A stretch of DNA of 62,808 bases from a virus (lineage: Duplodnaviria; Caudoviricetes). A program made the translations under genes and the position numbers. The notes under the pieces were generated by a model that searched no databases, had not been told where the DNA came from, and saw only the letters and a list, made by a program, of their open reading frames with translations. Where the stretch lies: positions 1 through 62,808 of IMG/VR virus record IMGVR_UViG_3300044568_000638. One strand, written 5' to 3'. The first letter of the stretch is position 1. Each line of letters opens with the position of its first letter. Shown here one piece after another: positions 3,157 through 57,528 of the stretch.

Positions 3157-5028
3157 ATGTCATTAACAAAAGTAACACCAAATCTTATTCTTGGACTTGC
3201 TGCATCGGCAACAACAGACACAACAAATGCGTCAAATATTACAACAGGTACATTGCCTAACGCAAGAACTACGGCAACAAGCACAAATTCAGCAAATGCA
3301 ATTATCGCAAGAGATATTTCTGGTGATTTTAAAGCATCATCAATAAATCTAATTCCAATTTCTAGGGGAGGAAATAGCATTCTTACAAATACAGCAGTTG
3401 GATTATCTTCTTTAGCAACAAATATAACTGGTTCAGACAATGTTTCTGTTGGAGTTCAATCATTGTATTTAAACACAATTGGATCAACAAATATATCTGT
3501 TGGAAATGTTTCTTTATCTAAAAATACATCTGGAGGACAAAATGTAAGCATTGGACAGGGATCAATGTTTGCAAATACGCAAGGTTCTGCAAATGTTTCT
3601 GTTGGACTTGAAGCACTAAGCAATAACACAACAGGAAATCAAAATGTTGCTGTTGGTGCTCAAGCATTAGATAAAAATACAACAGCTTCACTTAATACTG
3701 CAATTGGAACACAAGCATTATATTCAACAACAATTGGGTCTAATAATGTTGGCATTGGTCGTACTTCAATGTATTCAAATACAACAGGAAATCAAAATGT
3801 TGCTGTTGGAAATAATTCACTTATTACAGGTGTAGCTTGCAATCAAAATGTATCTATTGGATATAATTCATTAGCTGGTTTACAAAGCGGTTTTGGTAAT
3901 ACTGCTGTTGGTTTTGAAGCAATGGGAAATGCTACAACTGCACAATTAAATATTGGAATTGGCACTCAATGCTTGGGTAATTCTTCTTCAACTGGAAACA
4001 CTATTATTGGTAATTTTTCAGCAAATGGTGCAACTACTGCTGCAAACAATGTTTCAGTTGGGTCAAATTCAAGTAAATTACTTTCAACAGGAAGTGAAAA
4101 TGTTTCGGTTGGTGTAGAAGCAATGTATGGCAACACAACAGGAGGTCGAAATGTTGCTATTGGAGCCATTGCTTTGAATAAAAATACAGCTTCAGCTAAT
4201 ACTGCAATTGGATATAGTTCTTCATACAACAATATAACAGGAACAAATAACGTATCTGTTGGATTTAGTTCGCTTAATTCTAATATAACGGAATCTGGAA
4301 ATACATCAATTGGAAATTATTCGTTGAATATATTTAATTCTGGCGAAAATAATACTGCAATTGGATATCTGGCTGGTAGTCTTTTGTATAATGCAACAAA
4401 TACAACGTGTTTAGGATATAATGCACAAGCAACCGCAAGCAACCAAGTAAGAATTGGAGACTCTAATGTAACAGCAGTTGTTTCTCAAGTCGGATCTTGG
4501 TCTGATGCAAGAGATAAATCTGATGTTAGAGATACAATTCTTGGCCTTGATTTCATTAAAAAAGTTAAACCAGTAGACTACAAGTGGGATTATAGAGAAG
4601 ATTATAGATCTGAATTTCCAGAAATTGAATTTCCAATTCAACCTTCAGAACCATCAAAAATTGGTGATTCAGATGAAGATGTCATTAAATATAACGAAGA
4701 ATATTCAAAATATCTTAAAGATTTAGAATTATATGTTTTAGAAAAACAAGAATACGATAAAAAATCAAATGAATGGAATGAATCTGTAAAATTAAAAAAC
4801 ATCGTCAAGGATGGAAGTAAAAAAAGAAACAGATACCATCATGGAGTTCTTGCTCAACAAATCCAAGAAATTATTCAAGAAACTGGAGTTGATTTTGGTG
4901 GATTTCAAGATCATTCAATGAAAGGATGGGAAGATTCAATGAGTATTGGGTATATTGAATTCATTGCTCCAATGATTAAAGCCATTCAAGAACTATCAGA
5001 AAAGATTGAAAAACTTGAAGAAAAATAA
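3157..5028 (+). CDS. Tail fibre with NxAVG adhesin repeats and S74 chaperone
   Basis: MSLTKV start, about 14-aa repeats, [26 protein letters not shown]. Confidence 0.85.
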   Translation: MSLTKVTPNLILGLAASATTDTTNASNITTGTLPNARTTATSTNSANAIIARDISGDFKASSINLIPISRGGNSILTNTAVGLSSLATNITGSDNVSVGVQSLYLNTIGSTNISVGNVSLSKNTSGGQNVSIGQGSMFANTQGSANVSVGLEALSNNTTGNQNVAVGAQALDKNTTASLNTAIGTQALYSTTIGSNNVGIGRTSMYSNTTGNQNVAVGNNSLITGVACNQNVSIGYNSLAGLQSGFGNTAVGFEAMGNATTAQLNIGIGTQCLGNSSSTGNTIIGNFSANGATTAANNVSVGSNSSKLLSTGSENVSVGVEAMYGNTTGGRNVAIGAIALNKNTASANTAIGYSSSYNNITGTNNVSVGFSSLNSNITESGNTSIGNYSLNIFNSGENNTAIGYLAGSLLYNATNTTCLGYNAQATASNQVRIGDSNVTAVVSQVGSWSDARDKSDVRDTILGLDFIKKVKPVDYKWDYREDYRSEFPEIEFPIQPSEPSKIGDSDEDVIKYNEEYSKYLKDLELYVLEKQEYDKKSNEWNESVKLKNIVKDGSKKRNRYHHGVLAQQIQEIIQETGVDFGGFQDHSMKGWEDSMSIGYIEFIAPMIKAIQELSEKIEKLEEK

Positions 5029-9793: not shown

Positions 9794-11899
9794 ATGAAAT
9801 CAGCACAAATCACATCAGGAAGACAAGAAAAAACTTCCGCTGGATGGTTGCGTGGAGTTAATTCTATGCGAAATCCTTGGGCGTTACCTAATGACCAAGT
9901 AAAATGGGCTGTTAATGCTCAGTTCCGAGGTGGTGTTGTCCAGACTAGGCCGGGTCAAAAAATGAAGCTATCTCTTCCAGCCGGGAATTTTCAAGGCGGA
10001 ATTCTTTTTCTTTCAAATAAGCAATATAAAGCAGCAGACGGAACTAATCCACCACAGATTTTTGACGTTAATGGCGAAGGCGTTGAAGAAATAGAAATTC
10101 CATACATGGTATTTGCTGTAAATGGTAAAGTCTATTGGAGTCCATTTCCACTTGTTCAACCTAAATCATGGGTTCCATACCAACTTTCAGGAGTTTCTAT
10201 TGATCCAAACGTAAAACAATGTGTTTTTACATTAGCAACAAAATCTGCTAATATTTCTACTGGTGGTGATGTTTCAATTACTCCATCTCATCGTGTTTTA
10301 TTTATTCAGGATGGTATTTCTGCTCCTGTTTACTGGGATGGAAGTAACACAACGGGAGTTCAATCGTCATCAATTCCAACTGGAACATGGATGGCGTATT
10401 CTGGAAATAGGTTGTGGGTTGCAAGTGGAAATATTGTTTTAGCATCTGATCTTGGTGATCCTACATCATGGCAAGAACGCATAACTGGAACCGGCAGAGG
10501 TGACTTTTCTTTTACTCGTCCTGTAACAGCATTAGCTGATTATATTGGGCAAAACAACGACCAGAAACTTTATGTATTTACGGATCGTTCAACATATGCT
10601 CTATCAAGTGGGATTTTAGATAGAACGCAATGGGCAACTACTGCAAACTTTCAAACTATATTATTTCCAAATGTAGGTTGCATAGCTGGAAAATCTATTA
10701 CTTTTCAAGCTGGTCAGATGTGGTGGTTTTCACAAGGAGGGCTTGTTTCTGCTGACGTTGCTGGTAACGCTTATTTGTCATCTCAAGTTCTTTACAAGGA
10801 CGTTGAAATGGTTAGAGCAAAAGCATACATGGCTGGAGATCAAACTGGCATTTGTGCTACATCTTTTGAAAACTACTTGTTATATAGCATTCCATACCTT
10901 GAACCTATAAATTCAGCTACAATGGTAATGGATTGGGCGGCAGCTTCGGAAATTAATCAACAACGAACTCCAGCGTGGTGTGGATTATGGACAGGAACAA
11001 GACCTATTGAATGGACTACAGGAATAGTTGGAGGACAATCTAGATGTTTTCATTTTAGTGTTGATTATTCTGCAACTGGAGACGGATCTTACATTTCACT
11101 TTGGGAATCATTCATGTCAAATCGAGTTGATTCATATTTGAGCATTAATGCAGATGGTACAACAACTGATCTATTCAATCGAATTTACGGACAAGTTGAG
11201 ACTGCGCTTTTGGGTGATGGCATGGATTACAAACAGTTTGTGTATGCTGAACTTGAATGCTGTGAGATCGGTGGCACAGTTGACGTTAAAACGTCTTACA
11301 GGGGTTCTAAAGGAAAATACCAATCAATACTAAATACTAGAGTTCTTGCCGTAACTGAAAATTACCAATGGGAAAACACACCAGTTGCTCCAGAAGTTGA
11401 AAATTTAGGGTTTCTTAACACGCAATATCGTCGATTAATTACTGAATCAACAACGCGAAATGCGGATTCATTAACGTGCGAATCTAAACTTACAACAGAC
11501 ATTGACAAAGCATTTTCTATACTTATTGAATGGTGTGGAGAGTTTGGACTAGAAACAATCCGTATGTTTCAAGACCCGTGGAGTGAAAGGTCAACTGGAG
11601 TTCCACAAACAGATGAGGAATTATCTTGTGTTGTTGCTCAAGATGGAACAGCATTGTTAGTTGATTTATTTCAAAGCCCATATGAAACACAGGACACAAA
11701 AATACAAGCTTGGAATGCAAAAGTTTATCAAAGTGTATCATTGCTATGCAATCAACCTTTGATTTCAGTTACAGCAACTGCATCCGCTTCATTTTTATCA
11801 AATATTTCCTTTGTTCATGCTGAAGAACAAGCAACAATACTAGCTGAACAAGCTGCTCGTTCAGCAGCACAACAATACATTTTGCAAAACCCTTGTTGA
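9794..11899 (+). CDS. Tail tubular B / nozzle (P22 gp10-like beta-propeller)
   Basis: 701 aa beta-rich, N...F.GGVVQTRPG, YSGNRLWVA, synteny. Confidence 0.7.
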   Translation: MKSAQITSGRQEKTSAGWLRGVNSMRNPWALPNDQVKWAVNAQFRGGVVQTRPGQKMKLSLPAGNFQGGILFLSNKQYKAADGTNPPQIFDVNGEGVEEIEIPYMVFAVNGKVYWSPFPLVQPKSWVPYQLSGVSIDPNVKQCVFTLATKSANISTGGDVSITPSHRVLFIQDGISAPVYWDGSNTTGVQSSSIPTGTWMAYSGNRLWVASGNIVLASDLGDPTSWQERITGTGRGDFSFTRPVTALADYIGQNNDQKLYVFTDRSTYALSSGILDRTQWATTANFQTILFPNVGCIAGKSITFQAGQMWWFSQGGLVSADVAGNAYLSSQVLYKDVEMVRAKAYMAGDQTGICATSFENYLLYSIPYLEPINSATMVMDWAAASEINQQRTPAWCGLWTGTRPIEWTTGIVGGQSRCFHFSVDYSATGDGSYISLWESFMSNRVDSYLSINADGTTTDLFNRIYGQVETALLGDGMDYKQFVYAELECCEIGGTVDVKTSYRGSKGKYQSILNTRVLAVTENYQWENTPVAPEVENLGFLNTQYRRLITESTTRNADSLTCESKLTTDIDKAFSILIEWCGEFGLETIRMFQDPWSERSTGVPQTDEELSCVVAQDGTALLVDLFQSPYETQDTKIQAWNAKVYQSVSLLCNQPLISVTATASASFLSNISFVHAEEQATILAEQAARSAAQQYILQNPC

Positions 11900-11900
11900 T

Positions 11901-12236
11901 ATGCCAAGTATTATTGACGCTTCATTAAAGATAACAGAATTCCCAAATAGATTTGTATCTCCATTTAAGGATGATCCAATAATTCCACTTTATTCATCAG
12001 TACCAATAAAAAACAACATAAAAGGATGTGTTCCATGTGTTGTGTGTGGTAATTTTTATGAAAGAAACAAAATAATACAGCAAGAAGCGGATAGGTTTAA
12101 AGATTATCTACCATATGAAAGTGAAATAACTGTAGGTATTTCTCAAACTGTATTGCCGCCGCCACCGCCACCGCCACCGCCACCACCACCGCCACCGCCT
12201 GCTGATTTGTATGTATTGTTTGTTAATTGGGAGTAA
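11901..12236 (+). CDS. Small CxxCxxC protein with 15-Pro run
   Basis: GCVPCVVC; ccg/cca run at 12156-12200. Confidence 0.65.
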   Translation: MPSIIDASLKITEFPNRFVSPFKDDPIIPLYSSVPIKNNIKGCVPCVVCGNFYERNKIIQQEADRFKDYLPYESEITVGISQTVLPPPPPPPPPPPPPPPADLYVLFVNWE

Positions 12237-15626: not shown

Positions 15627-16463
15627 ATGGAACAACTAATAAATAAAACAATAAATAAAATAACAGAATGGAATAAAAGATGGCCTAGAGCAGTAGTTTT
15701 GTGGAGTGGAGGAAAAGACTCCACGGCATTGCTTCATCTTATTAAATTTAAAGCGGGAATTGATCTTCCAGTCATTCAATATCGTGAACCAAAAATGCGA
15801 GAACGATATGCGTATTCTGACAAGCTAATAAAAGATTGGAAGTTGGAAGTGTACGATTATCCACCGAATAGGGTTTCAATTGCTGACGGCCCAGACGTTG
15901 AAACTGGAGAGTTGCGTTTTGACTTTATAAAATATTACCAATGGGGAAAACAATCTGCCGTTTGCCTTTCTCTAGGAACAGAGCGTCCAAAGGATGGAGA
16001 AGATTATTTGTGTGGGCTTACAGACCTATTGCAACGTCCTACAGGAACTTTTAATTGGCCTTGGGGGGCAGTATATATCGGGACAAAATATTCAGATACA
16101 GATTTAATTAAAGGCCATGTACCACTTGCTGTTGATATTCGATATGCTGACGATTCGCCAATGTCGCTTTATCCGCTCCGAGATTGGACTGATAAAGACA
16201 TTTTTCAATATTTGGAAGAAGAAGGAGTAAAACCTGATCCAACACGATACATCAAAAGCTGGGATACTTGGGGAAACAACAAAGACAAATCGCTTAATGC
16301 TGACTTTTATCCAGTTTGCTTTAATTGCATTAACAGACATGAAGGAAAATACGTTGATTGTCCTAAGTTGAATGCTAAAATATCAAACATTTCTCACCTT
16401 GCTCCATACGAGGATTTGGTAAACGAAGACTTAGGTTTTCGTCCTGTTACATGGAACAAGTAG
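15627..16463 (+). CDS. PAPS-reductase-family PP-loop (adenine nucleotide alpha-hydrolase) protein
   Basis: SGGKDS, YPLRDWT..DIF.YL, C-terminal CxxC...C. Confidence 0.85.
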   Translation: MEQLINKTINKITEWNKRWPRAVVLWSGGKDSTALLHLIKFKAGIDLPVIQYREPKMRERYAYSDKLIKDWKLEVYDYPPNRVSIADGPDVETGELRFDFIKYYQWGKQSAVCLSLGTERPKDGEDYLCGLTDLLQRPTGTFNWPWGAVYIGTKYSDTDLIKGHVPLAVDIRYADDSPMSLYPLRDWTDKDIFQYLEEEGVKPDPTRYIKSWDTWGNNKDKSLNADFYPVCFNCINRHEGKYVDCPKLNAKISNISHLAPYEDLVNEDLGFRPVTWNK

Positions 16464-16738
16464 AATTTGACTGTAAGTCATGTGGTGCTTGCTGTGCATT
16501 TAAATGGTCATGGCCTGTTTTTAAGAGAGATAGATCAGATGCAATAAATATTCCAAATGAAATGGTAAGAACTGACTATCCATTAATGGAAACATATAAT
16601 AATAGATGCATTGCGTTAGATGGAAAAGTTGGTGAATCTGTGTGTTGCAAGATATACAATGATAGGCCAAATTCTTGCCGTAAATTTGAACCCGGCAGTG
16701 ATCTTTGCAAAGAAGCAAGAAAAAAACTTTTGACTTAG
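16451..16738 (+). CDS. YkgJ-like CxxCxxCC Zn/Fe-chelating protein
   Basis: CKSCGACC...C..L...CKIYNDRPNSCRKF. Confidence 0.85.
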   Translation: MEQVEFDCKSCGACCAFKWSWPVFKRDRSDAINIPNEMVRTDYPLMETYNNRCIALDGKVGESVCCKIYNDRPNSCRKFEPGSDLCKEARKKLLT

Positions 16739-16820: not shown

Positions 16821-17285
16821 ATGGGAGGCAAGAAAAGCGCACCAAAACCAGAACCTAAACCAAAAATTGATCCAATGATGGTTTATTTGCAACAACAACA
16901 AGTTCAGCAAGCACAGCAAGCCGCTGCTTCTGCTGAAGCTCAACAAAAAGCGTTGATGCAATCGCAAATTCAAGCTGGAGCGCAAGCTGAACTAACTGGC
17001 GAGCAAGCTGCAAAACAAGGATTGGCAACCGCTGAATCAATGCAGTCCATTCGTGACGCAAACGCACTTCAGTCCGCTCAAACGGCTGCATCTACATCAG
17101 GACAACAAGTGACAGGTGGTGGATTTGACGTTAATGCTGCACGTCAGCAGGCTTTAACTAATCTTGGAGCTGGAACATCAATGATTCCACAAACTCCAGC
17201 AAACATTGGTGCAATGGGACAACCCAAAGCAGCTAATATGTTCTCGCTTCCTCAATCATCCGATCTAAAGTTCGGTGGATCTTAA
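16821..17285 (+). CDS. Ejection/internal virion protein 3
   Basis: MGGKKS start, Gln/Ala-rich. Confidence 0.65.
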   Translation: MGGKKSAPKPEPKPKIDPMMVYLQQQQVQQAQQAAASAEAQQKALMQSQIQAGAQAELTGEQAAKQGLATAESMQSIRDANALQSAQTAASTSGQQVTGGGFDVNAARQQALTNLGAGTSMIPQTPANIGAMGQPKAANMFSLPQSSDLKFGGS

Positions 17286-17288
17286 AAT

Positions 17289-19217
17289 ATGGCTATCAGC
17301 TATTCTTCCGAGGGTTATAAGGTAACTCCTCAATTCGCCAATCTTGGCGCATTGCAGGGATTGCAGCCACTAGACGTAACACGGAAGGCTACCTTTGAGC
17401 CTCGTCCACTTGCTCCAATTGAGGTTTATTCATCCCGTCCAGAGCTTGTGGCACAAGGACTAGCTCAAGGCATTCAGTCTGCTGTTAGTGGCGTTACTGA
17501 AGGAATTAAAGCACATTACTCAGAGAAGAGAGAACTGGCTAAGGAAGAAAGGAAATTCCAACAGCAAATTGAGCTTGAAAAAGCAAAACAATCAACTGAA
17601 AATCTTTCTTTCATAAATCAAGAAAGAGTTAAATTAGCAGCAACAAAAGGACTTGAAGCTGATTATAAAGAACAAGATGCTGCTCTTGTTGAAGCTGGAA
17701 GAAGAGTTATGGGCGTTGTTCCTAGTGGCTATAAACAAAAGGAAACTAAAAAAACAAATGAATCTTTTAAACCAGAGCCATTAGATACAGGTAAATCCTT
17801 GTCAAAACAAGGAGCGAGCGTTGATGCTCAAGGCAGAATTATAACAAACGCTACTCCACTTCCGGGCGAAGTAATTTCAACAGCAGAACAACCACTTCAG
17901 GGATTTGCATATCAACGTGAAATGCAAGAAAAAGAACAACAAGAAAACAAAACTCCAACGGAAACTTATGTAGGTGTTGATGATTCTACTATAGCTAAAG
18001 ATAAAGAATTTTTAGACAACTTACAATTAGAAGAAACAAAAGTTACATTTGCACCTCAAGCTCCAGTTGCGCCCCCTGTTGTAATTCAACCAGCGCAACC
18101 CGCTGGACAACCAACTCAAGAATTAACAGGTATTCAGCCAGTTACACCACAAGGTGGAGTTGTTCCTGCTCCAGTTGAATTTAATAGACCAGAACAACCA
18201 AAAGATCCCAAATTACCTCGTGATCTCAGGTCATATGTTTATATGCCAGATGAGTCAAGTAATGCTTATCAATCGGCGGCTGAACTTACTACTCCATATA
18301 GAAAAGTTTCTGTAGAGCAAAATCCAAGAACAAAAGAATATTTCTTAAAACAAGAAGATACTTCGGCAGATGTGCTAAAGATGCAAAGTGAAGCGCAAGC
18401 AATTGGTATAAGTGCAGAAGAGTTGGTGCTTAAAAAGCATCAGAGAGACTTAGCCAATCAAGATCAAGCAAATAAAACATTAGAAGCTAATCGGAAGATT
18501 GTAAAAGAAGATAAATCATATCGTGACTCGTTAAAGGATAGCATAAATAAGCAAGCAAATAAAATAGATTTGATCGAAGATGCAATAACTAGAATTCAAT
18601 CAAACCCTGATCTTGTTGGTATTTATAGTCAATATCTTAGAGGAAAAGAGCCTATTGGTGGATTTAATTATCAAAACATTGCTGCAATTGCAAAAGGTGC
18701 TGGGTATTCTGGCCCAATGGAAAAAATCCAAAAAATTGTAGACATTGAACAAGCTCTTAAATCAATTGAAGCTAATCTTGGTTGGGAAGAGTTTGCAAAA
18801 ATGAAACAATTGTCTCCAACTGGAACAGCTGGAGTTGGTGGTCTGACTGAAGGAGAAAGGCAATCTCTAGAAAGAATTCCCGGATCATTAGACATTACAA
18901 ATTCTTCTGAAAAACTTCTTGGAACTCTTTATAATCTTAGAAATGGATCTATAAAGACTATCACTAACGCTTCAAATGAAGTTGAGTCTGCTGATAAAAC
19001 ATTTAAACGACCAATTTACAATTCACTTAGGATGAATCCAAATGATGAATCTAGGATTAAAATTTTAAGTGATGGACTTGGAAAAGCAACTGAAGAGCAA
19101 AAAACAAACGAAAATTATTTAAATGCTATTGAAGAATTAAAAAATCTTATTAGAAAAAGAGATAGAATTAAAGAGTTTAATGCTGAATTAGGTCAAACTT
19201 TTAGAAATATTAAATGA
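17289..19217 (+). CDS. Ejection/DNA transfer protein (642 aa)
   Basis: Amphipathic GLAQGIQSAVSG, coiled coil, G.GGLTEGE motif, synteny. Confidence 0.6.
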   Translation: MAISYSSEGYKVTPQFANLGALQGLQPLDVTRKATFEPRPLAPIEVYSSRPELVAQGLAQGIQSAVSGVTEGIKAHYSEKRELAKEERKFQQQIELEKAKQSTENLSFINQERVKLAATKGLEADYKEQDAALVEAGRRVMGVVPSGYKQKETKKTNESFKPEPLDTGKSLSKQGASVDAQGRIITNATPLPGEVISTAEQPLQGFAYQREMQEKEQQENKTPTETYVGVDDSTIAKDKEFLDNLQLEETKVTFAPQAPVAPPVVIQPAQPAGQPTQELTGIQPVTPQGGVVPAPVEFNRPEQPKDPKLPRDLRSYVYMPDESSNAYQSAAELTTPYRKVSVEQNPRTKEYFLKQEDTSADVLKMQSEAQAIGISAEELVLKKHQRDLANQDQANKTLEANRKIVKEDKSYRDSLKDSINKQANKIDLIEDAITRIQSNPDLVGIYSQYLRGKEPIGGFNYQNIAAIAKGAGYSGPMEKIQKIVDIEQALKSIEANLGWEEFAKMKQLSPTGTAGVGGLTEGERQSLERIPGSLDITNSSEKLLGTLYNLRNGSIKTITNASNEVESADKTFKRPIYNSLRMNPNDESRIKILSDGLGKATEEQKTNENYLNAIEELKNLIRKRDRIKEFNAELGQTFRNIK

Positions 19218-22200
19218 CACTTGAAGAACAGATCCAGTCTGAAATAGAAAACGAAAAAAAGTTATCAGCAAAGGATTCTTCAGAAAAACCTGTTGAAGAA
19301 AAGCCTCCTCTTGCTGATGTAACAGCTCCACAACCCGTGTCTGGAATGACTCAAGTTAAATCAAAGCCACTTGAATACATGGAGCCAGCTACTGAATTGC
19401 TAGGAATGACTGGTGCTGTTACTCGTGGACTTACCGTTCCAGCAGTACAAGCTGCCGCTGGTGGAGTTTTGGGATCTATTGCTGGCCCTCCCGGCATTGC
19501 CGCTGGAGCTGCTGCTGGCCCTATTGTTTTTGGTCTTGGCGATCTAGCTATTGAGGGAGTCAATTCTTATTTTGGAACTGATTTTGGAACTTCTCGTGGA
19601 GCAATAACGCATCTTTTAGATAAACTTGGAACTCCAAAACCTGATACTGCTGCTGAGAGGGTTACTGAGGCAGTAACTGAAGGTTTAGCAAGTGGAGGTG
19701 GATCTGCTCTTGCATTTAAAAAAGGTGGAGAAATTGCAAAAGCTGGAAGTAAACTTCAAAAAGTATCTGAGTTTATGGGTCAGAAACCTTTAGAACAAGC
19801 TGTAATTGGCGGGTTAGCTGGAGGAGCATCATCTGGCGCACAGGAGGCTGGAGCTGGCCCTGTTGGATCTGCTTTGGCTGGTTTAGCTGCTGCTGGAGCT
19901 GTCCCTGCATTGAAGTATGGAACTAAAGCTGGAATGAGAACATTTTTTCCAACTAAACAGCAATTAGAGCAAGAAGCAATGCAGTCCGCACAGGGAGTTT
20001 ATCAAACACTTCTTCCAGATGAAAAATCAAGACAAGAAGCAATTTCATCATTAAAAAGAGCAGGAGAAGTAGCTGATAAAGATATTAAATTGATGACTGG
20101 TGAAATAACTGGTCAAACTGGATTATTAGCATTGCAACAAGCATTGGAAAAATCATCTATTGAAGTTGCCAATCGTAAAGTTGAAAACATTAGAGGTATT
20201 AGCACTAAGGTTAGCGAGGGTCTTGAGACTACTGGAGTAAAACCAGAAGAAGCTGAAATGTTTTTTAAGTCTAAATTAGATGAACTTGAAAATGTAGCAA
20301 ATCAGTCTTCAGATGCATTAACTTTATCTGGAGACATTGAGAGTCAGGCGATGATCAATGAATCTAAGCAAATTTTGGCAGAGCAAAAGAAACTAGCTGA
20401 AACTGGAGTTTTAACAGCAGAAGAGGCATATAAAAACGCTGAAAATAAACTTAATAATAGAATTGAAACATACAAGCTAAGTGCTGGTGCAGAAGCAAAA
20501 GATCCAGCAAGTAAAATTGCATCAAATGTTATTGAAAAACAAAATGAAGCTGGAGGCATATATGCTACTCAATTATATTCTAAAATAGGAAAAGTAGATC
20601 CATTTGAACAGCCAAATACCAAAAAAGCAATTGATAATTTAATAGCAAAAACTCCAGAAGGAGAAAACGGAACAAAAGATATTCCTAAAATAATTAAAGA
20701 CATATATGCTAATATTTCAGATCAAGATGGAAATTTAAAATTAAAGGAATTATGGGAGCCTGTTGATTGGAGACAAAAGTTAAATGATGAAATTAATAAA
20801 GCAATAAGAACTGGAAATAAAAAAGAATCAAAAAAACTTATTGAAATTAAAAAATCAATTGATGCTGACTTAGCACTTCTTGAAGAAGTTTATCCTCAAA
20901 TCAAGGAAGCAAATAAGTTTTATTCAGAATATTCTGATATTTTTAATACTGGAGCATCTGAAGAGGCATTTAAAGAAGGCGTAAGCGCAACAAAGGTATT
21001 AAAAGAATACATCCCAGCAAGTGCAGAATTAGCAACAGAAGATGATTTGTTAAGATTACGAAAAGCAATCGAGGGACATCCAAAGGTTCCAACGTCACCA
21101 GAATTAGTTAAAGAGGGATTCAGTGCTGTTGACGATTGGGTTTATAGTCAAGCATTTAATTCTATTAATAAAGGAAATCCATCTAGTTCATTAAAAACAT
21201 GGGTTAGTAAAAACGGTTCAAGAATATTTAAAGCATTTGAAGGAAGTAAATCAAATGTAAAACAAGGAATAAATGATCTTATTTCAGAATTTGAAGGACT
21301 TGAGCAAGCTAAAAAAACAGCAGAAGAAAGTCTTGAACTATCAAAAATTAAAAGAATTGAACAAGGAGAGAGTGCTGAATTGGTTAATAAGCAAAATATA
21401 GAAGCGGCTAAATTGCTTAAATCTCAAATGGAAAAAACAGCACAAAAAATCTTAACCGATTTTCAGGAACAAAATATCCCATCAAGAAATCCAGCTAATC
21501 AGTTTATTGGAGGAAATGCTGAAGATATATTTGGAAAAATCTTTGCATCAAATACATCAAGAGCAGATATGGCAAAAGTCATTGAAGCTGCATCAAAAGA
21601 TCCAACAGGAAAAGCATTAGAAGGATTAAAGAACGCTGCAAGAAAAAACTTAAAGAGTAGTGTTGACCTTCCTGCAGAACCTACTGTAAAAGCTGGAATG
21701 ACTGATGCAGTGCGGTTCAATGATGAATTAAAAGTAAGCCTTGGTAAATCAACTGAATTACTTAAGCCGGGTTCTCCTAAGAGGGATGTACTTGAGATGT
21801 TGTTTGGAAAAGATTCTAGGGAACTAAACTCACTTGATAAAACAAGAGAATTCCTTAATATGATGTCACAAAAAACAGATTTTTCTGCATCAGATGTTGC
21901 AAAGTATAAAGATATAGCTCAAAACAGCAATATTAATGATCTTTTGTCTCTTGGTGCTATTGCATTTGGAAATGTTAAAGGCTTTGTTGCTTGGAAGAGC
22001 CTTGACTTGATTAGGAAGTTCCAAAAAAGCACAAGGAAAGATGTCAGTGAAATCTTTAAAGATATTCTAGTAAAGGCTCAATTTGATCCAGAAACAGCAA
22101 TAATATTGTCTCAGCCAATTACTCCAGAAAACTTTAAACTAACTCAACGCTTGCTAAGGAACTTTGGAATTCAAGCGGAAGCTACTGACTTTGGTATTGA

Positions 22201-22264
22201 AGAGCCTACAGAAGAGGGTCAAGAAACAACACAAAACAAAAGCGGAGAATTTCCAAAACTATAA
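19214..22264 (+). CDS. Large ejection/DNA transfer protein (1016 aa)
   Basis: Gly/Ala membrane-like segments then long helical body. Confidence 0.65.
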   Translation: MTLEEQIQSEIENEKKLSAKDSSEKPVEEKPPLADVTAPQPVSGMTQVKSKPLEYMEPATELLGMTGAVTRGLTVPAVQAAAGGVLGSIAGPPGIAAGAAAGPIVFGLGDLAIEGVNSYFGTDFGTSRGAITHLLDKLGTPKPDTAAERVTEAVTEGLASGGGSALAFKKGGEIAKAGSKLQKVSEFMGQKPLEQAVIGGLAGGASSGAQEAGAGPVGSALAGLAAAGAVPALKYGTKAGMRTFFPTKQQLEQEAMQSAQGVYQTLLPDEKSRQEAISSLKRAGEVADKDIKLMTGEITGQTGLLALQQALEKSSIEVANRKVENIRGISTKVSEGLETTGVKPEEAEMFFKSKLDELENVANQSSDALTLSGDIESQAMINESKQILAEQKKLAETGVLTAEEAYKNAENKLNNRIETYKLSAGAEAKDPASKIASNVIEKQNEAGGIYATQLYSKIGKVDPFEQPNTKKAIDNLIAKTPEGENGTKDIPKIIKDIYANISDQDGNLKLKELWEPVDWRQKLNDEINKAIRTGNKKESKKLIEIKKSIDADLALLEEVYPQIKEANKFYSEYSDIFNTGASEEAFKEGVSATKVLKEYIPASAELATEDDLLRLRKAIEGHPKVPTSPELVKEGFSAVDDWVYSQAFNSINKGNPSSSLKTWVSKNGSRIFKAFEGSKSNVKQGINDLISEFEGLEQAKKTAEESLELSKIKRIEQGESAELVNKQNIEAAKLLKSQMEKTAQKILTDFQEQNIPSRNPANQFIGGNAEDIFGKIFASNTSRADMAKVIEAASKDPTGKALEGLKNAARKNLKSSVDLPAEPTVKAGMTDAVRFNDELKVSLGKSTELLKPGSPKRDVLEMLFGKDSRELNSLDKTREFLNMMSQKTDFSASDVAKYKDIAQNSNINDLLSLGAIAFGNVKGFVAWKSLDLIRKFQKSTRKDVSEIFKDILVKAQFDPETAIILSQPITPENFKLTQRLLRNFGIQAEATDFGIEEPTEEGQETTQNKSGEFPKL

Positions 22265-22265
22265 T

Positions 22266-22412
22266 ATGCCACTAAGAAAATGCGCCTCCCAAAATTGCTT
22301 TGACAGGAATGTTTCAGCAGAAGTAAAGTCAGGTAAACCTGTAAAACAAGCGGTTGCGATTGCATATAGCGTCCAACGCGAAGCTAAAGCAAAATCTAAA
22401 AAGAAAAAATAA
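22266..22412 (+). CDS. Small basic protein
   Basis: MPLRK...GKPVKQAVAIAYS...KKKK. Confidence 0.75.
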   Translation: MPLRKCASQNCFDRNVSAEVKSGKPVKQAVAIAYSVQREAKAKSKKKK

Positions 22413-22504
22413 TGAGCCTTGGTGATTGGAGTATTTTGATAATGGCAATTTCTTCATTTATTGGTGGAGGAATTTGTATTGGTGTTGCCCATTGGTGGGA
22501 GTAA
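22412..22504 (+). CDS. 30-aa membrane peptide
   Basis: TAATG overlap; hydrophobic core. Confidence 0.45.
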   Translation: MSLGDWSILIMAISSFIGGGICIGVAHWWE

Positions 22505-22508
22505 AGGT

Positions 22509-23165
22509 ATGATTACATTAAAGTCTGTTGATCCAGTATCCATGCGGTATGTGACTACTGGAGACTGGGAATGGTTGCCTAATGGAGAGTTGAAATGTTC
22601 TGTAGCAGAGTATGGCAATGAAGATGGCGAGTTTCTAGTTAGTCTTCATAAAATGGTAGAGGGTTGGTTATGCCGTAAAGATGGAATCCGCGAGGATGAG
22701 GTATCTGCGTTTGACATTTCAAATCCAGAGGCTCCACATCACAAACAGAACCAAACTGCCACAGAGGTAGAGAAGATCGTCTGTGAGGCAATGTCGATTG
22801 ATTGGGAGGCACACAAAGATTGGGTTCAACGTGCAAGTGACGAGGTAGAAGAAAAATCATTTCATGAAGTTCCATCAATGCTTATCAATGGGCCTAGATT
22901 CTGGGCTGAGTTGCATTTGCTAGGGATTCGACACAGGACAGGCAAAAACATGACAGGATGGCTTAACGATTGGCGTGATTCTATTCCATTTAATGGATGC
23001 CCATGCAAAGAACATCTTGATAATTGGTTTTCAGAAAATCCACCTGATTGGAATCGTTTTTTTGAATGGGGAATTGATTTGCACAACGCCGTAAACTTGC
23101 GTATTGGGAAGCCAACAATGGATATTGAGAATGCAAAAGAATTGTGGACTCAAAAACATTTTTAA
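22509..23165 (+). CDS. Two-domain protein with C-terminal Erv1/Alr-like sulfhydryl oxidase domain
   Basis: GPRFWAELH ... CPCKEH ... W..LHNAVNLRIGKP. Confidence 0.7.
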   Translation: MITLKSVDPVSMRYVTTGDWEWLPNGELKCSVAEYGNEDGEFLVSLHKMVEGWLCRKDGIREDEVSAFDISNPEAPHHKQNQTATEVEKIVCEAMSIDWEAHKDWVQRASDEVEEKSFHEVPSMLINGPRFWAELHLLGIRHRTGKNMTGWLNDWRDSIPFNGCPCKEHLDNWFSENPPDWNRFFEWGIDLHNAVNLRIGKPTMDIENAKELWTQKHF

Positions 23166-23172
23166 AAAGTTG

Positions 23173-23200
23173 TTGCAAGTTTTAAAATAACTTGTATATT
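23173..23200 (+). promoter_or_regulatory. Sigma70-like promoter
   Basis: TTGCAA-N16-TATATT. Confidence 0.5.
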
Positions 23201-23225
23201 TCAATTAGTTTCTTCACCGAACTAT

Positions 23226-23251
23226 AGCCTGTGTTAGCGCACAGGCTTTTT
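23226..23251 (+). terminator. Intrinsic terminator
   Basis: agcctgtgt/gcacaggct stem followed by T run. Confidence 0.7.
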
Positions 23252-23289
23252 CGTTTTTAGGTTCGGTGTAAAGTTCGGTGAAAAACATT

Positions 23290-23338
23290 TTGCATTTTTG
23301 AACTAAACGTATAAATTCACGGCATCGTTAATAACGAT
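23290..23338 (+). promoter_or_regulatory. Promoter with downstream palindromic operator
   Basis: TTGCAT-N16-TAAATT; ATCGTTA-A-TAACGAT at 23324-23338. Confidence 0.45.
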
Positions 23339-23347
23339 AATAAATAT

Positions 23348-23584
23348 ATGAATACTTTACAGATTAAACCTAAAAGAACATCAAGTAAAAGGAGCCTTTA
23401 CTCTGCTGGAAGTTTAACAACTTCTGGAACAATAGATGAAAAGGACATTTGGTTAATTAACTTAGCAGCGCAATTTGATCGTGCTTGCGATTACTTCTGG
23501 ACAAAAACTCCAGAAAGACGAAAAGTGCAAGCCGAATTTAAAAAGAATTGTAGTTATATTAATAATAGATATGCGAGTAAATAA
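23348..23584 (+). CDS. Hypothetical protein
   Basis: A-rich leader, follows promoter. Confidence 0.55.
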   Translation: MNTLQIKPKRTSSKRSLYSAGSLTTSGTIDEKDIWLINLAAQFDRACDYFWTKTPERRKVQAEFKKNCSYINNRYASK

Positions 23585-23807
23585 CCATCCAGCATTTCCA
23601 GTCACGGCATACCCCGGCGACCAAAATAGTCCCAAGGTGCGTCCTAACTCTGGTATGGGAATGCGTGATTGGTTTGCAGGACGAGCATTGGAAGGCATCC
23701 TATCCAATCCAGAAGAGCTAGCAATGGAAGCCCCACCAGAGAGTATTGCTCGTATTGCATATAAATTTGCAGACGCAATGCTAGAAGAAAGAGAACCCCA
23801 CACATGA
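23571..23807 (+). CDS. Conserved phage protein (PAFP...GM..RDWFA..A motif)
   Basis: Motif common in phage early genes. Confidence 0.75.
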   Translation: MRVNNHPAFPVTAYPGDQNSPKVRPNSGMGMRDWFAGRALEGILSNPEELAMEAPPESIARIAYKFADAMLEEREPHT

Positions 23808-23947
23808 AAAGCCAAACATCAGCCAGCTTGAAATTTGGATCTCCAATGATCGTTTCAAGTGCAGTAACAAAACCACAAAAAACAAACATCCGTGTGTCTA
23901 TGCCTAAAGCAAAGGCAAAGATGCCAAAACTACCAAAAAAGAAATAA
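23804..23947 (+). CDS. Small Lys-rich protein
   Basis: ATGA overlap, 47 aa. Confidence 0.5.
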   Translation: MKSQTSASLKFGSPMIVSSAVTKPQKTNIRVSMPKAKAKMPKLPKKK

Positions 23948-23949
23948 AT

Positions 23950-24186
23950 ATGAGCGAAGAAAACGAACTTGTCGGATTCGGTGAAGATCAACAAAAAGCA
24001 ATCGAACACGCAATAAAAGGAATTGACATTGACGCAATCAGCAAAGATGAAGTCTTTCTTGATTTCATTGGGAGATTGAAACGCTTTAACTTTGAATGCT
24101 CCGTTGCATTGCATCTCCTAGAAAAGAAGACGCTTGCTGACATGGCTGAAAAAGCTAAAGAAGTCGAAGTTGAAAGCAAAGAATAA
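23950..24186 (+). CDS. Hypothetical protein
   Basis: A-rich leader, packed ORF. Confidence 0.65.
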   Translation: MSEENELVGFGEDQQKAIEHAIKGIDIDAISKDEVFLDFIGRLKRFNFECSVALHLLEKKTLADMAEKAKEVEVESKE

Positions 24187-24189
24187 TTT

Positions 24190-24435
24190 ATGAGCATCAT
24201 CAGTGACCATGCACATGATTCCCATGATATGGGAGGAAGCTGCAAGTCTTGTGGAACTGATTGGATTGACCACATGGGTGTTCAATCCACTTGCTCTCGT
24301 CTACAGCAAGCCAGTGAGCTACTTCTAATGGCTCTTAGCTATATTAAGCAACCAGAGTATTCAAGAGATCTTGGCGAACAAGAAATGTATTTTGACTTCC
24401 GAAAAGCAGTAGAAAAGTTTTATGGAAAACATTAA
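24190..24435 (+). CDS. Hypothetical protein with CxxC..H..C
   Basis: Packed ORF. Confidence 0.6.
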   Translation: MSIISDHAHDSHDMGGSCKSCGTDWIDHMGVQSTCSRLQQASELLLMALSYIKQPEYSRDLGEQEMYFDFRKAVEKFYGKH

Positions 24436-24580
24436 GAAGTCTGAATGGTCTGGACAGGCTGGCAAAGGTGACGAAGAACGTCCTGTTGACCGCAAAAAGT
24501 ATCGCGCTAACTTTGACGAGATCGACTGGTCAGCGCATAAGAAAGCGTCTTCAAAACTTCACCCCGATAAGCGAACCTGA
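24422..24580 (+). CDS. Small phage protein (GKG...RP....Y..N.D.I motif)
   Basis: 52 aa, translated by hand. Confidence 0.65.
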   Translation: MENIKKSEWSGQAGKGDEERPVDRKKYRANFDEIDWSAHKKASSKLHPDKRT

Positions 24581-24624
24581 ATGGACAGGTGACTCCTGTG
24601 GACGCGCAGGAGAAGGGTGTCTTT

Positions 24625-24999
24625 TTAATCTATCGGCTTGTCGCTGATTTCGATTTCCGTATGTTCTTCCGTTTTGGTTTTAATTTTGACTTGCTTGAAC
24701 TGGACTTCGATGTCTTCGGGCGAGTCGTCTTTGATGAGTTTAGAGTAACGTAATTGGTCAATAATTGGTTTACAACCTCCTGCGTAGTTGTCGCAGTCGA
24801 GGGGTCTTGTACTATATCTCGTAATGCGGACGTAAGTGCGATTGCTGACCTTTTCTTTTCTTTTAGGTAGTGCGACCAGTGCTTGTTGAGCAGGATGTTT
24901 AGGGATGGGGTTAGATACCCGTGTAGGTGTAAAGTAATAGTGTCCATCTTGTGATCGTGTGTAACCTTTCTCTTTTAGTTGATCTTCAGTCCAGTTCAT
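24625..24999 (-). CDS. RusA-like Holliday junction resolvase (catalytic part)
   Basis: R.LD.DN..GG.K..ID.L....I.DD. Confidence 0.75.
   Translation of the reverse strand: MNWTEDQLKEKGYTRSQDGHYYFTPTRVSNPIPKHPAQQALVALPKRKEKVSNRTYVRITRYSTRPLDCDNYAGGCKPIIDQLRYSKLIKDDSPEDIEVQFKQVKIKTKTEEHTEIEISDKPID
24630..24947 (-). CDS. Nested alternate-frame ORF with RusA-type N-terminal motif
   Basis: TITLHL...PSLN.LL..HW....EKK; open for 105 codons. Confidence 0.5.
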   Translation of the reverse strand: MDTITLHLHGYLTPSLNILLNKHWSHYLKEKKRSAIALTSALRDIVQDPSTATTTQEVVNQLLTNYVTLNSSKTTRPKTSKSSSSKSKLKPKRKNIRKSKSATSR

Positions 25000-36325: not shown

Positions 36326-37441
36326 ATGAGATTCCACATTCTAGGATTACCGCACACTGTAACAAGTAAAGATTTTAACGCCTGTGCCTACACTGCAAAG
36401 GTTTTAAAATTCGGAAAGATGATGACAAGCCGAGGACACGAAGTCATCCACTATGGGCATGAAGATTCCGACCTCCAATGCACAGAGCACGTTAGCGTTT
36501 TAACAAACGATGACTTCTCTAAAAGCTACGGCTCGCACGATTGGCGCAAGACATTCTTTAAATTTGATATCGGCGATCACGCATATCAGACGTTTTACGC
36601 AAACGCCATTCGTGAAGTAGGAAGACGCAAACAGAAAAACGATTTCATCCTGCCATTTTGGGGAAGCGGAGTACGCCCGATCTGTGATGCTCATCAAGAT
36701 TTGATTTGCGTGGAACCCGGGATTGGATACGCAGGAGGACACTGGGCGCGATGGAAGGTGTGGGAAAGCTACGCCATTTATCACGCATATTGCGGGATGC
36801 AAGCTGTCGGAAATTGCCAGCAGGATAACTATAGCGTGGTGATCCCAAACTATTTCGATCCCGCTGATTTCACCTTCCAATCCGAAAAGGAAAACTATTT
36901 CCTCTATCTGGGCAGGGTTTACAGCGGGAAAGGCGTTGACATTGCAATCCAAGCCACGGAACGAGCGGGAGTGAAGCTAGTGATTGCAGGACAGAAGGAA
37001 GAAGGCTACAAGCTACCGCCCCACGTTGAATATGTAGGATACGCCGACACGGAAACCCGCAGAAAGCTAATGGCAAACGCCAAAGCATCTTTCCTGCCCT
37101 CGCAATATGTGGAGCCGTTCGGTGGTGTGCAGATTGAAAATTTGCTTTCAGGAACTCCGACAATCACGACAGACTGGGGGAGCTTCGCAGAAAACAACCT
37201 CCACGGCATTACAGGCTACCGATGCCGAACGATGGGAGACTTCGTTGATGCAATCCACGCTGTCGACCGCATACGCCCCGAGAATTGCCAAGCTTTCGGA
37301 TTGAATTTTACGCTCGAACGTGTCGCGCCGATGTACGAGAAATATTTCTCCGATGTTCTGGACGTTTACAACGGGGCAGGATGGTATGCAGACGGAAATG
37401 GCATTGACGCAATGACACGTTACTTCCCAGCGATTGACTAG
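36326..37441 (+). CDS. GT-B (GT4-like) glycosyltransferase
   Basis: GHEV, YLGR....KG, EPFG.V.IE. Confidence 0.88.
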   Translation: MRFHILGLPHTVTSKDFNACAYTAKVLKFGKMMTSRGHEVIHYGHEDSDLQCTEHVSVLTNDDFSKSYGSHDWRKTFFKFDIGDHAYQTFYANAIREVGRRKQKNDFILPFWGSGVRPICDAHQDLICVEPGIGYAGGHWARWKVWESYAIYHAYCGMQAVGNCQQDNYSVVIPNYFDPADFTFQSEKENYFLYLGRVYSGKGVDIAIQATERAGVKLVIAGQKEEGYKLPPHVEYVGYADTETRRKLMANAKASFLPSQYVEPFGGVQIENLLSGTPTITTDWGSFAENNLHGITGYRCRTMGDFVDAIHAVDRIRPENCQAFGLNFTLERVAPMYEKYFSDVLDVYNGAGWYADGNGIDAMTRYFPAID

Positions 37442-37464
37442 CCTGCACGACATAAACCCTCACA

Positions 37465-37899
37465 ATGAGCCACCAAGACGACACAAGCCGAGACGAATCA
37501 CAAGACAGCTTCTCAAATATCACCGACCTAGAAGAATCGGCATTCTATGAAAGCGGATTGACGGCACATGGATGCATGGACAAGTTGGACGCATACGCCA
37601 TGGAAAGCATCAAACGCTATGGCCGCATTTTATTCAAGGCCGCATACCATGATGCAACCGCATTCAAAGCATACAAAGATTATACTGGATTGATGCTGGA
37701 ATCAGAGAGGCTAAAAAAGGAACTGGCAGAGATAAAGGAACGATGCGAAAAGCTAGAGAAGGCTATGAAATACTCCCCAGCTGGTGAATCTTTGTTGTCT
37801 AAGTTTATTCAAGCCACGCAAGACATCCACGAAGCGAGAGAAGAAATCAGACTACTAAAAGCAATCATGGACATGATGAAAGATAATGCTAATGAGTGA
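37465..37899 (+). CDS. Coiled-coil hypothetical protein
   Basis: Packed ORF. Confidence 0.55.
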   Translation: MSHQDDTSRDESQDSFSNITDLEESAFYESGLTAHGCMDKLDAYAMESIKRYGRILFKAAYHDATAFKAYKDYTGLMLESERLKKELAEIKERCEKLEKAMKYSPAGESLLSKFIQATQDIHEAREEIRLLKAIMDMMKDNANE

Positions 37900-38446
37900 T
37901 TACACATTTGAAAGTAAATATTGGGGTGATTGCTGTAACACGTTCGATGAAGATCAGAAGCATTACATTTATGCGCGATTCATGGGATTGGACAGGGTAG
38001 GCTATTCATTTGACGTTCATGGACGATCCATTGTGGACATAGGAGGAGGCCCAACGTCCATGCTATTAAAGACAAAAAACCTAGGGAAGGCACTTGTAGT
38101 TGACCCATTGTTTTACCCAGCGTGGACGTATGCAAGGTATGATGCAAAGGGAATCAACTATTCGGTGATAAGGGGTGAAGATTTGACCCGTGATGGATTT
38201 GATGAATGCTGGATTTATAATTGCTTACAGCATACGGATGACCCTGCAAAGATTATTGCCAATGGATTGAGAGCCGCAAGGACGTTGAGAATCTTTGAAT
38301 GGGTAGACATTCCAGCACATGAAGGACACCCCCAAGAGATCACCAAAAAACTTCTTGACGATGCAATAGGGAATGAAGGAAAGTTAATTCACCTATCCGA
38401 GGCAGGATGTTTTGGGTTGGCATATTTCAATACATACACACAATGA
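37892..38446 (+). CDS. Class I SAM-dependent methyltransferase
   Basis: VDIGGGP, VVDPL, FDE...NCLQH. Confidence 0.8.
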   Translation: MSDYTFESKYWGDCCNTFDEDQKHYIYARFMGLDRVGYSFDVHGRSIVDIGGGPTSMLLKTKNLGKALVVDPLFYPAWTYARYDAKGINYSVIRGEDLTRDGFDECWIYNCLQHTDDPAKIIANGLRAARTLRIFEWVDIPAHEGHPQEITKKLLDDAIGNEGKLIHLSEAGCFGLAYFNTYTQ

Positions 38447-42292: not shown

Positions 42293-42874
42293 ATGGCAAA
42301 GGTTATTATTGGAATGATACCGCCCGGCGGTTGGCACTACTTTGATTCAGACGCAAAGTTGACAGCACATTCGTATGAAGGACTTCTTAAAGTTGTTGAA
42401 GACTATCGCGCAGAGAATCATTTACCTATTGGTGACGTTGAAGGTGACGTTAATAGCTACATTTGTTCTAACTGGCCTAATTTTTGTCATGGGGTTGATA
42501 TGGTTGTGGTAACAAGTGTTCATCCTGAGTCTGCACAGCAATCGTTACTAAACGACATTACAATTTGGGCAAGGAACCTCCTTAATTCAAAAACTACAAA
42601 CAATCTAGTTTCTAATGAACTTGCAGAGGAACGAGCAAAAATCTGCAAAGGTTGTCAACACAATAAAAACTGGCGCGGTGGATGTTCGTCTTGCATTGCG
42701 GCAGCAGATAGAATCAGTGCAAGCGTTCGCAATGGTAGAGACACACAATCGTCAACTAAATTAGGTGGATGTAACATCATGCGACATGATAACCGTAGCG
42801 CAATTTTCTTTGACAAGAATAAACTTTCACAAGCAACCTCCACTCCAGATAATTGCTGGATGAATATAAAATAA
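42293..42874 (+). CDS. Cys-rich protein between terL and portal
   Basis: PPGGW.Y, R..IC..C..N, CxxC, terminal CW; 8 Cys. Confidence 0.7.
   Translation: MAKVIIGMIPPGGWHYFDSDAKLTAHSYEGLLKVVEDYRAENHLPIGDVEGDVNSYICSNWPNFCHGVDMVVVTSVHPESAQQSLLNDITIWARNLLNSKTTNNLVSNELAEERAKICKGCQHNKNWRGGCSSCIAAADRISASVRNGRDTQSSTKLGGCNIMRHDNRSAIFFDKNKLSQATSTPDNCWMNIK

Positions 42875-55953: not shown

Positions 55954-57528
<1,575 letters not shown>

Follow-up and report, generated by a model that had tools for sequence, protein, structure and literature searches.

A two-domain gene at the end of the late block

The window analysed here is the whole of IMG/VR record IMGVR_UViG_3300044568_000638 (62,808 bp, 40.5% G+C), a complete or near-complete virus record (CheckV 99%) with the gene content of a tailed phage: TerS, TerL, collagen-repeat tail fibres, DnaB, an Erf-like protein, MazG, dCMP deaminase and an endolysin. 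Its late block runs on the + strand from ~35.7 kb through the end of the record to 23.2 kb. The last gene of this block, at 22509-23165 (+), starts with an ATG at 22509 and encodes a protein of 218 aa, followed by a stop, in which an N-terminal domain of a HExxE family (22509-22862; residues 1-118) is joined to a C-terminal domain of the Erv/ALR fold (22875-23162; residues 123-218). A Shine-Dalgarno-like GGGAG can be read at 22497-22501 (+), 7 nt 5′ of the ATG. A search with the full 218-aa protein returned 40 homologues, all metagenomic and 43-95% identical, whose alignment begins at this ATG and 38 of which match Pfam PF04777; the search with the Erv domain alone returned 1 candidate. We conclude that the open reading frame is a real two-domain gene.

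All of the motifs quoted in the first-pass annotation of this DNA were located in the translation: LHKMVE at residues 46-51, GPRFWAELH at 128-136, CPCKEH at 164-169 (nt 22998-23015) and WGIDLHNAVNLRIGKP at 187-202. In the last of these, the part that had been spelled W..LH has the spacing W-x-x-x-L-H, one residue more.

Comparison with 50,697 phage records gave no match to the 218-aa protein (tblastn), to region 17000-24900 (blastn) or to the capsid candidate discussed below, and for TerL the sole match was Pseudomonas phage AF (22.5% identity). The 218-aa protein found no family in PHROGs or NCBIfam, and seven Erv proteins, including both CPC-type and CxxC-type sequences, found none in PHROGs at E≤0.1. 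One relative carries an Erv profile match with one in-frame TAG (G043:C1:5826-6500, on the same contig as locus L007), which may reflect a sequencing error or a damaged gene copy.

The C-terminal domain belongs to the Erv/ALR family

The first-pass annotation had read the protein as Erv/Alr-like from its motifs, and profile and fold searches uphold that reading. Pfam PF04777 (Evr1_Alr) matches residues 131-213 with an E-value of 6.1e-8 and 33.4 bits against a cut-off of 27.6. When a profile of 21 homologues was compared with the PDB, African swine fever virus (ASFV) pB119L ranked first (3gwl_A, E 3.1e-11), followed by human and rat ALR (5.9e-6), Arabidopsis Erv1 (AtErv1, 1.1e-5) and yeast Erv1. 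An AlphaFold (AF2) model of the 218-aa protein (pLDDT 87.7) has five helices in residues 123-214, and in a structural search against representatives the best match was again the ASFV enzyme (3gwl_B, Z 13.6, rmsd 2.0 Å, 93 aa, 29% identity). The six Erv-family entries in that search scored Z 13.6, 12.2, 12.1, 11.6, 11.5 and 11.3, and the next, non-Erv row scored 5.5. The five-helix FAD-binding fold is thus that of eukaryotic Erv1/ALR and Erv2 and of the Erv proteins of nucleocytoplasmic large DNA viruses (NCLDV), with Erv1, Erv2 and mimivirus R596 at Z 11.3-12.2. Sulfhydryl oxidases also ranked first in Foldseek searches of the PDB and of the BFVD viral models.

Conservation within the group falls on the same positions as in alignments of known family members. 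Twelve positions (G128, W132, H136, C164, P165, C166, H169, H192, N193, N196, R198 and W213) are invariant in 42 of 42 full-length relatives down to ~40% identity, and K201 is kept in 36 of the 42. The flavin-side positions among them, namely W..(L)H of helix 1, H-N-x-V-N of helix 4, the next basic residue and the C-terminal W, align with 3gwl, ALR and AtErv1, and are the signature residues that we take to be the FAD contacts of the family. Because all 12 signature positions are kept in every relative, the alignment points to an active site under purifying selection and not to a decaying domain. For the family's homodimer through helices 1-2, a complex prediction with two copies of residues 118-218 and two FAD molecules gave a median score of 0.31 against a mark of 0.42, with controls at 0.00-0.01, and we count it neither for nor against the assignment. 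The 218-aa protein is very probably an Erv-fold flavoprotein, with FAD binding predicted.

pB119L resembles the phage enzyme in more than its scores, since the two share the GP..W..LH, C-x-x-H and HN.VN.R motifs and both are viral proteins with a bare Erv core that lacks a shuttle disulfide. In contrast to the phage protein, pB119L has a CxxC (C-T-R-C), has no N-terminal domain and serves a virus of a eukaryotic host.

CPC replaces the FAD-proximal CxxC

The canonical FAD-proximal Cys-x-x-Cys is absent from the phage protein, and CPC (C164-P165-C166; 22998-23006, +) stands in its place at the N-terminus of helix 3, as located by alignments to 3gwl and ALR. In the HMMER alignments C166 is the second Cys of the family CxxC and C164 lies one residue nearer to it than usual, so that CPC has lost one of the two residues that separate the Cys of CxxC, and the downstream C-x-x-H keeps its register. 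Among 37 distinct Erv cores from the fetched loci, all 32 of the phage type have CPC, as do all 47 retrieved proteins that bear the HN.VN motif. The five remaining cores, from three giant-virus-like contigs and two planctomycete-genome contigs, have CMKC, CKNC, CPSC or CDDC, and a scan of genome contigs for Erv cores found only two Alienimonas contigs, both with CxxC. The Erv-like ORFs of the giant-virus MAGs and of Alienimonas (L042-L048) are the nearest non-phage sequences found, at 28-39% identity; they share HNAVN.RIGKP and C-x-x-H with the phage Erv but retain one or another of the same four CxxC forms and lack the N-domain. The CxC that the first-pass annotation noted in place of CxxC is therefore real, and as judged from these alignments it is a CxxC shortened by one residue that appears to be absolutely fixed by selection in this phage lineage.

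According to PMC3509050 and PMC5203823, Erv1/ALR, Erv2 and the NCLDV Ervs all have a FAD-proximal CXXC, and on a flexible arm the cellular enzymes additionally carry a shuttle disulfide of the CxC, CxxC or Cx4C type, Cys-X-Cys being an accepted shuttle motif. The phage Erv is unlike all of these in that its proximal site has CxC and a shuttle pair is missing: outside CPC, C55 is the sole conserved Cys in the 42 full-length relatives, and a second conserved Cys pair sought in the same set was not found. The same CPC tripeptide occurs in Mia40/CHCHD4, where its disulfide is the redox-active donor to substrates (PMC5203823). Mia40 has an unrelated fold and no flavin, however, so the likeness is at the level of the motif and does not imply homology. 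In a literature search that took in few subscription journals, we found neither an Erv with CxC at the FAD-proximal site nor a description of a bacteriophage Erv/ALR oxidase. Since the defining CxxC is absent and we found no described Erv with CxC at this site, catalysis is a prediction; on balance we favor an active thiol oxidase, with some reservation.

The same departure from the family could instead mean that the protein is a former oxidase, in which CPC and H169 bind a metal (Cu or Zn) or in which the domain is a structural or flavin-binding module, for example of a virion-internal protein, and the conserved residues maintain a cofactor or the fold without thiol oxidation. The loss of the canonical CxxC and the absence of shuttle cysteines fit this explanation, as do the position of the gene after large internal-virion-like proteins and the general knowledge that CxC motifs are possible metal ligands. 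However, H169 is inherited, for the CxxC relatives have C-x-x-H too; CPC sits exactly at the FAD-proximal position; and flavin-side signature residues conserved in 42 of 42 relatives are hard to explain without cofactor chemistry. We regard a metal-binding or purely structural role as improbable.

The N-terminal domain derives from a large stand-alone family

The N-domain comprises three strands and four helices and is a member of a large family of stand-alone phage proteins. When 1.84 billion representatives were searched with a profile, 4,172 matched at E≤1e-3 and 1,572 clusters passed E≤1e-10, family size being counted as clusters at 50% identity. The best 150 of the profile matches were mostly stand-alone proteins of 110-140 aa that cover only profile positions 1 to ~120. 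Family members are ~125 aa long, and a few (P0108, P0109 and P0148 of the set P0048-P0189) are fused behind HNH endonucleases. No model in Pfam, PHROGs or NCBIfam covers these proteins, and the Atlas returned only viral 'hypothetical protein' clusters for the N-domain, with an IrrE-N-like cluster, at 0.79, as the nearest named one.

The stand-alone proteins have the motif HExxExxxC ... D ... EPG ... PY..H. When 26 of them were aligned with the protein studied here (alignment A3), H47, E51, C55 and D69 were invariant and E48 and H81 were conserved in at least 90%. Across the 42 Erv fusions, E51 and C55 are each kept in 41, and the other positions are kept less often (H47 in 34, D69 in 32, H81 in 25 and E48 in 24). 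The copy in this phage reads HKMVE at H47-E51 (22647-22661, +), with Lys in place of E48; it also has N81 and lacks the EPGD loop. The description of a fused N-domain with a degenerate HE-like motif, first made from this one sequence, is supported by the family alignment, in which the conserved site appears to be relaxing or decaying in the Erv fusions.

Modelled alone, the N-domain reached a pLDDT of 95.2. Its best structural neighbours, at Z 4.5-5.6 and so below the noise guide of the tool, are nearly all zincin-like (selecase, YbeY, PprI/IrrE, CapP, SprT and abylysin), and Foldseek returned nothing at E≤1e-3. The minimal zincins (selecase/minigluzincins, IrrE/PprI, SprT and YbeY) resemble the modelled domain in having a three-stranded sheet followed by a helix with H-E-x-x-(H/E), but they differ in that the motif of the phage family is HExxE and not HExxH, the Z-scores are only 4.5-5.6 and there is no sequence-family match. 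We therefore treat a zincin-like N-domain as a lead suggested by the model and not as a finding. Because the conserved site relaxes in the fusions, the domain is most likely a recycled docking or scaffold module there. Mimivirus R596 offers a parallel in arrangement, as it too is an Erv core fused to a lineage-specific extra domain (PMC3509050).

An accessory gene in a slot that varies among relatives

The neighbours of the Erv gene are constant across 40 related viral contigs, with a 48-aa basic CxxxxC protein upstream (phrog_2423; 22266-22409, +) and, downstream, a cluster of small genes that leads to the replication module. The 48-aa gene is retained in relatives that lack the Erv gene and thus marks the slot. 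Its product is 69-100% identical among phages whose neighbouring genes are far more diverged, and both of its Cys are invariant. At nine loci (L006-L008, L016, L018, L023-L025 and L030) a ~430-aa ORF lies between the 48-aa gene and the Erv gene, and L023 and L025 also have an HNH/endonuclease VII gene in the slot. The ~430-aa ORF was considered as a flavin partner and rejected, its Dodecin match spanning 20 residues at a sub-threshold 20.1 bits versus 22.5.

Among records related through TerL, 14 of 17 carry the Erv gene, including 6 of the 8 that are at least 90% complete; among those related through the 701-aa protein described below, many of which are short fragments, the gene was found in 9 of 31 and in 1 of the 3 that are at least 90% complete. 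Taken as distinct near-complete relatives, 7 of 11 have the gene and 4 do not. In two cases, G003 and the divergent portion of G001, the slot is empty and the flanking genes are adjacent. G001 (71,431 bp; L141-L144) contains two TerL/portal/capsid-region sets, one 97-99% and the other ~70% identical to this phage, and may be a chimeric assembly despite its completeness rating of 100%. On a tree of the 701-aa protein, presence and absence of the Erv gene amount to only two changes. The Erv gene is an accessory cassette whose slot, where the late structural block ends on its 3′ side, is variable; with 7 of 11 near-complete relatives carrying it, it is not a core gene for morphogenesis of the poxvirus/NCLDV type.

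The region that precedes the slot (17289-22261, +) encodes Cys-free proteins of 642 and 1016 aa that are 33-40% identical between the phages of L002-L004, in which the flanks are 95-100% identical. From these identities it appears to be a mosaic or fast-evolving module.

Virion Cys content does not follow the Erv gene

Poxvirus E10 and related NCLDV Erv proteins make virion disulfides in the cytoplasm, and pB119L has a role in ASFV virion assembly. The first-pass annotation had proposed a bacteriophage version of such a pathway in a phage with Cys-rich virion proteins. Its hand counts of Cys are correct for the ORFs named as capsid (51785-52981; 7 Cys), nozzle (9794-11896; 12) and portal (42878-45286; 9). 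Of these names, capsid is supported indirectly by Atlas Phage_capsid_3/4 clusters (0.97) and portal, likewise indirectly, by its place after TerL, but nozzle has no family match. The 399-aa protein is plausibly the capsid protein, and this candidate is the best conserved of the group's proteins (85-98% identity). N-terminal Cys motifs, attributed to several fibres, are present at 59935-62025 (C13, C15, C23) and 2506-3135 (C3, C9) but not at 363-2495, 3157-5025 or 55954-57525. A Cys-rich virion was not borne out: the proteome has 211 Cys in the 18,496 residues of its 72 ORFs (1.14%), and four of the largest proteins of the virion block (1016, 642, 524 and 422 aa) have none.

Presence of the gene was not linked to Cys content. 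In 10 shared virion-block orthologues, Cys makes up 1.21-1.39% of residues in seven Erv-bearing genomes and 1.24-1.37% in three that lack the gene, and six Cys of the capsid candidate and 8 Cys of the 701-aa protein (the nozzle candidate) are invariant in Erv-bearing and Erv-lacking phages alike. At some individual positions Cys does go with the gene. Position 490 of the 701-aa protein (C490) is Cys in 15 of 19 Erv-bearing versus 0 of 7 Erv-lacking phages and C42 in 11 of 19 versus 0 of 7, and the portal has a total of 7-9 Cys with the gene and 5-6 without it. However, a test of Cys against Erv on the tree of the 701-aa protein yielded only 1-2 independent pairs, so that the C490 and C42 pattern is inseparable from shared ancestry and the tracking, including that of the portal Cys, is phylogenetically confounded. 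A thioredoxin- or glutaredoxin-like partner was not seen among 71 ORFs compared with PHROGs and 52 compared with Pfam, small unannotated ORFs remaining outside these matches.

These results bear on the strictest form of the virion explanation, that the enzyme makes disulfides obligatory for morphogenesis, as poxvirus E10R and ASFV pB119L do, and that a Cys-rich capsid, nozzle and portal depend on it. The ASFV enzyme as the closest solved relative, the position of the gene in the late block, the invariant Cys of the capsid candidate and the 701-aa protein, and the distribution of C490 and C42 are in keeping with it. Against it, the gene is missing from 4 of the 11 near-complete relatives, which keep all of the invariant Cys; Erv-bearing and Erv-lacking genomes have equal Cys contents; Cys is not abundant in the proteome; the C490 and C42 contrast is confounded by ancestry; and no partner oxidoreductase was seen among the ORFs matched to PHROGs and Pfam. 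An obligatory pathway is improbable, and a poxvirus-like model with a core gene and a Cys-rich particle is not supported. The broader proposal of a phage virion-disulfide pathway has the late 3′ position and the viral precedent in its favor, but the correlation of gene presence with virion Cys content, the check suggested in the first-pass annotation, does not support it; Erv may have a facultative 'pre-oxidation' role in the phage.

Several other proteins of the window have conspicuous Cys patterns. A 193-aa protein between TerL and portal (42293-42871, +) has 8 Cys, two CxxC pairs among them, and all 8 are unchanged in 7 of 7 genomes, a pattern that looks like metal binding rather than disulfides. 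At 15627-16735 (+), in the middle of the structural block, there are two overlapping genes: one encodes a 278-aa PAPS-reductase/CysD-like protein of the ATP-pyrophosphatase fold (PF01507, E 4.6e-8), and the other, whose start lies in the overlap, a 95-aa protein that contains 9 Cys (PF03692, CxxCxxCC, E 2.6e-9); the pair is conserved in relatives, including those that lack Erv. A 111-aa protein at 11901-12233 (+) has CxxCxxC followed by a run of 20 prolines.

Host, habitat and expression

The stretch is found in oxic lake-water metagenomes of several studies, and 7 other runs contain at least half of its sampled words. A two-gene cassette at 36326-38443 (+), consisting of a group-1 glycosyltransferase gene (36326-37438) and a gene for a phrog_3603 protein (37886-38443), matches Synechococcus phages only (52 and 45 records, at 71% and 59% amino-acid identity, respectively), in which the two genes are also adjacent; the cyanomyophages ACG-2014f and S-CAM7 are among those that share it. 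This one shared cassette suggests a freshwater Synechococcus-like picocyanobacterium as host.

One metatranscriptome library contains a 621-nt contig, from a relative ~94% identical, that spans 22614-23232, although carry-over of DNA could account for it. RNA libraries X22 and X24 have contigs on neighbouring genes and none on the Erv gene, a gap that proves nothing as only contigs were searched. A terminator-like hairpin with a 9-bp stem (5 GC) and a T-run lies at 23226-23257 (+), 61 nt after the stop codon; the region has about as many such sites as shuffled sequence (3 vs 2.7), so this terminator is only a lead. As its gene is the last of the late structural block, the Erv protein is probably made late, a timing that rests on gene order and one consensus-type hairpin.

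A cyanobacterial host brings a different set of targets into view, in that the oxidase could act on thioredoxin and its targets or on CP12/PRK/GAPDH, or could drain low-molecular-weight thiols, and so create a 'dark/oxidised' state in which carbon and reducing power are diverted to phage replication. Such a takeover of host redox control would suit the cassette-like presence and absence of the gene, its slot being one that in relatives also takes an HNH endonuclease and an unrelated ~430-aa ORF, and its position next to the small-gene cluster leading into the replication module. It would also suit virion Cys content that is uncoupled from the gene and the precedent of cyanophages that target the thioredoxin/CP12 switch (PMC3906501 and bioRxiv 10.64898/2026.09.10.750766). 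However, the host is deduced from a single cassette, and the end of the late block, beside a terminator-like site, is late for such a function. We consider a takeover of host redox control unlikely, but less so than either an obligatory virion pathway or a metal-binding role.

Proposed function

The explanation that we prefer, to which we give roughly even odds (about 0.5), is that the protein is a cytoplasmic FAD-dependent Erv/ALR sulfhydryl oxidase that uses CPC-to-flavin chemistry and is made late, with phage structural proteins as the substrates that we favor. The enzyme would act in the cytoplasm of the host, probably a freshwater Synechococcus-like cyanobacterium, where a substrate dithiol would reduce the strained disulfide of C164-P165-C166, located where helix 3 begins, and electrons would pass from CPC to the adjacent isoalloxazine ring and on to O2, yielding H2O2. 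The N-domain, drawn from a widespread stand-alone family (HExxE..C) and with C55 as its one conserved Cys, would serve as the docking or scaffold module, and the substrates that we favor, phage structural proteins, would be pre-oxidised before release. The choice of virion proteins as substrate is the weakest step and by itself doubtful; stated more broadly, the most likely activity is oxidation of protein thiols in the infected cytoplasm using O2, with phage structural proteins, host redox switches or small thiols as candidate targets. A more ambitious version, which we hold only tentatively, is a self-contained cytoplasmic phage disulfide enzyme whose Mia40-like CPC would hand electrons straight to the flavin, with no shuttle arm or adapter, and which is combined with a recycled zincin-like docking domain; by making the interior of a bacterial, probably cyanobacterial, cell oxidising, it would cross-link the particle or flip host thiol switches.

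Implications

Erv/ALR oxidases are classically known from mitochondria, the ER and large DNA viruses of eukaryotes, and to our knowledge the bacterial cytoplasm is regarded as a compartment without structural disulfide formation. The N-domain flags a very large phage family, with >1,500 clusters at 50% identity, that is named by no library. If the phage Erv is active, virus-encoded cytoplasmic disulfide formation would extend to bacteriophages, and a natural Erv with Cys-x-Cys beside the flavin would allow tests of ring strain and of the tuning of redox potential in the family. Production of disulfide-bonded proteins in the bacterial cytoplasm today relies on imported yeast Erv1p, for which an active phage enzyme would be a compact candidate. 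If host redox regulation is the target, the gene would represent a new class of cyanophage auxiliary gene. If the reading of a self-contained CPC-flavin enzyme is true, this would be the first Erv-type system for oxidative folding in bacterial viruses and would bring a new active-site chemistry to the Erv family.
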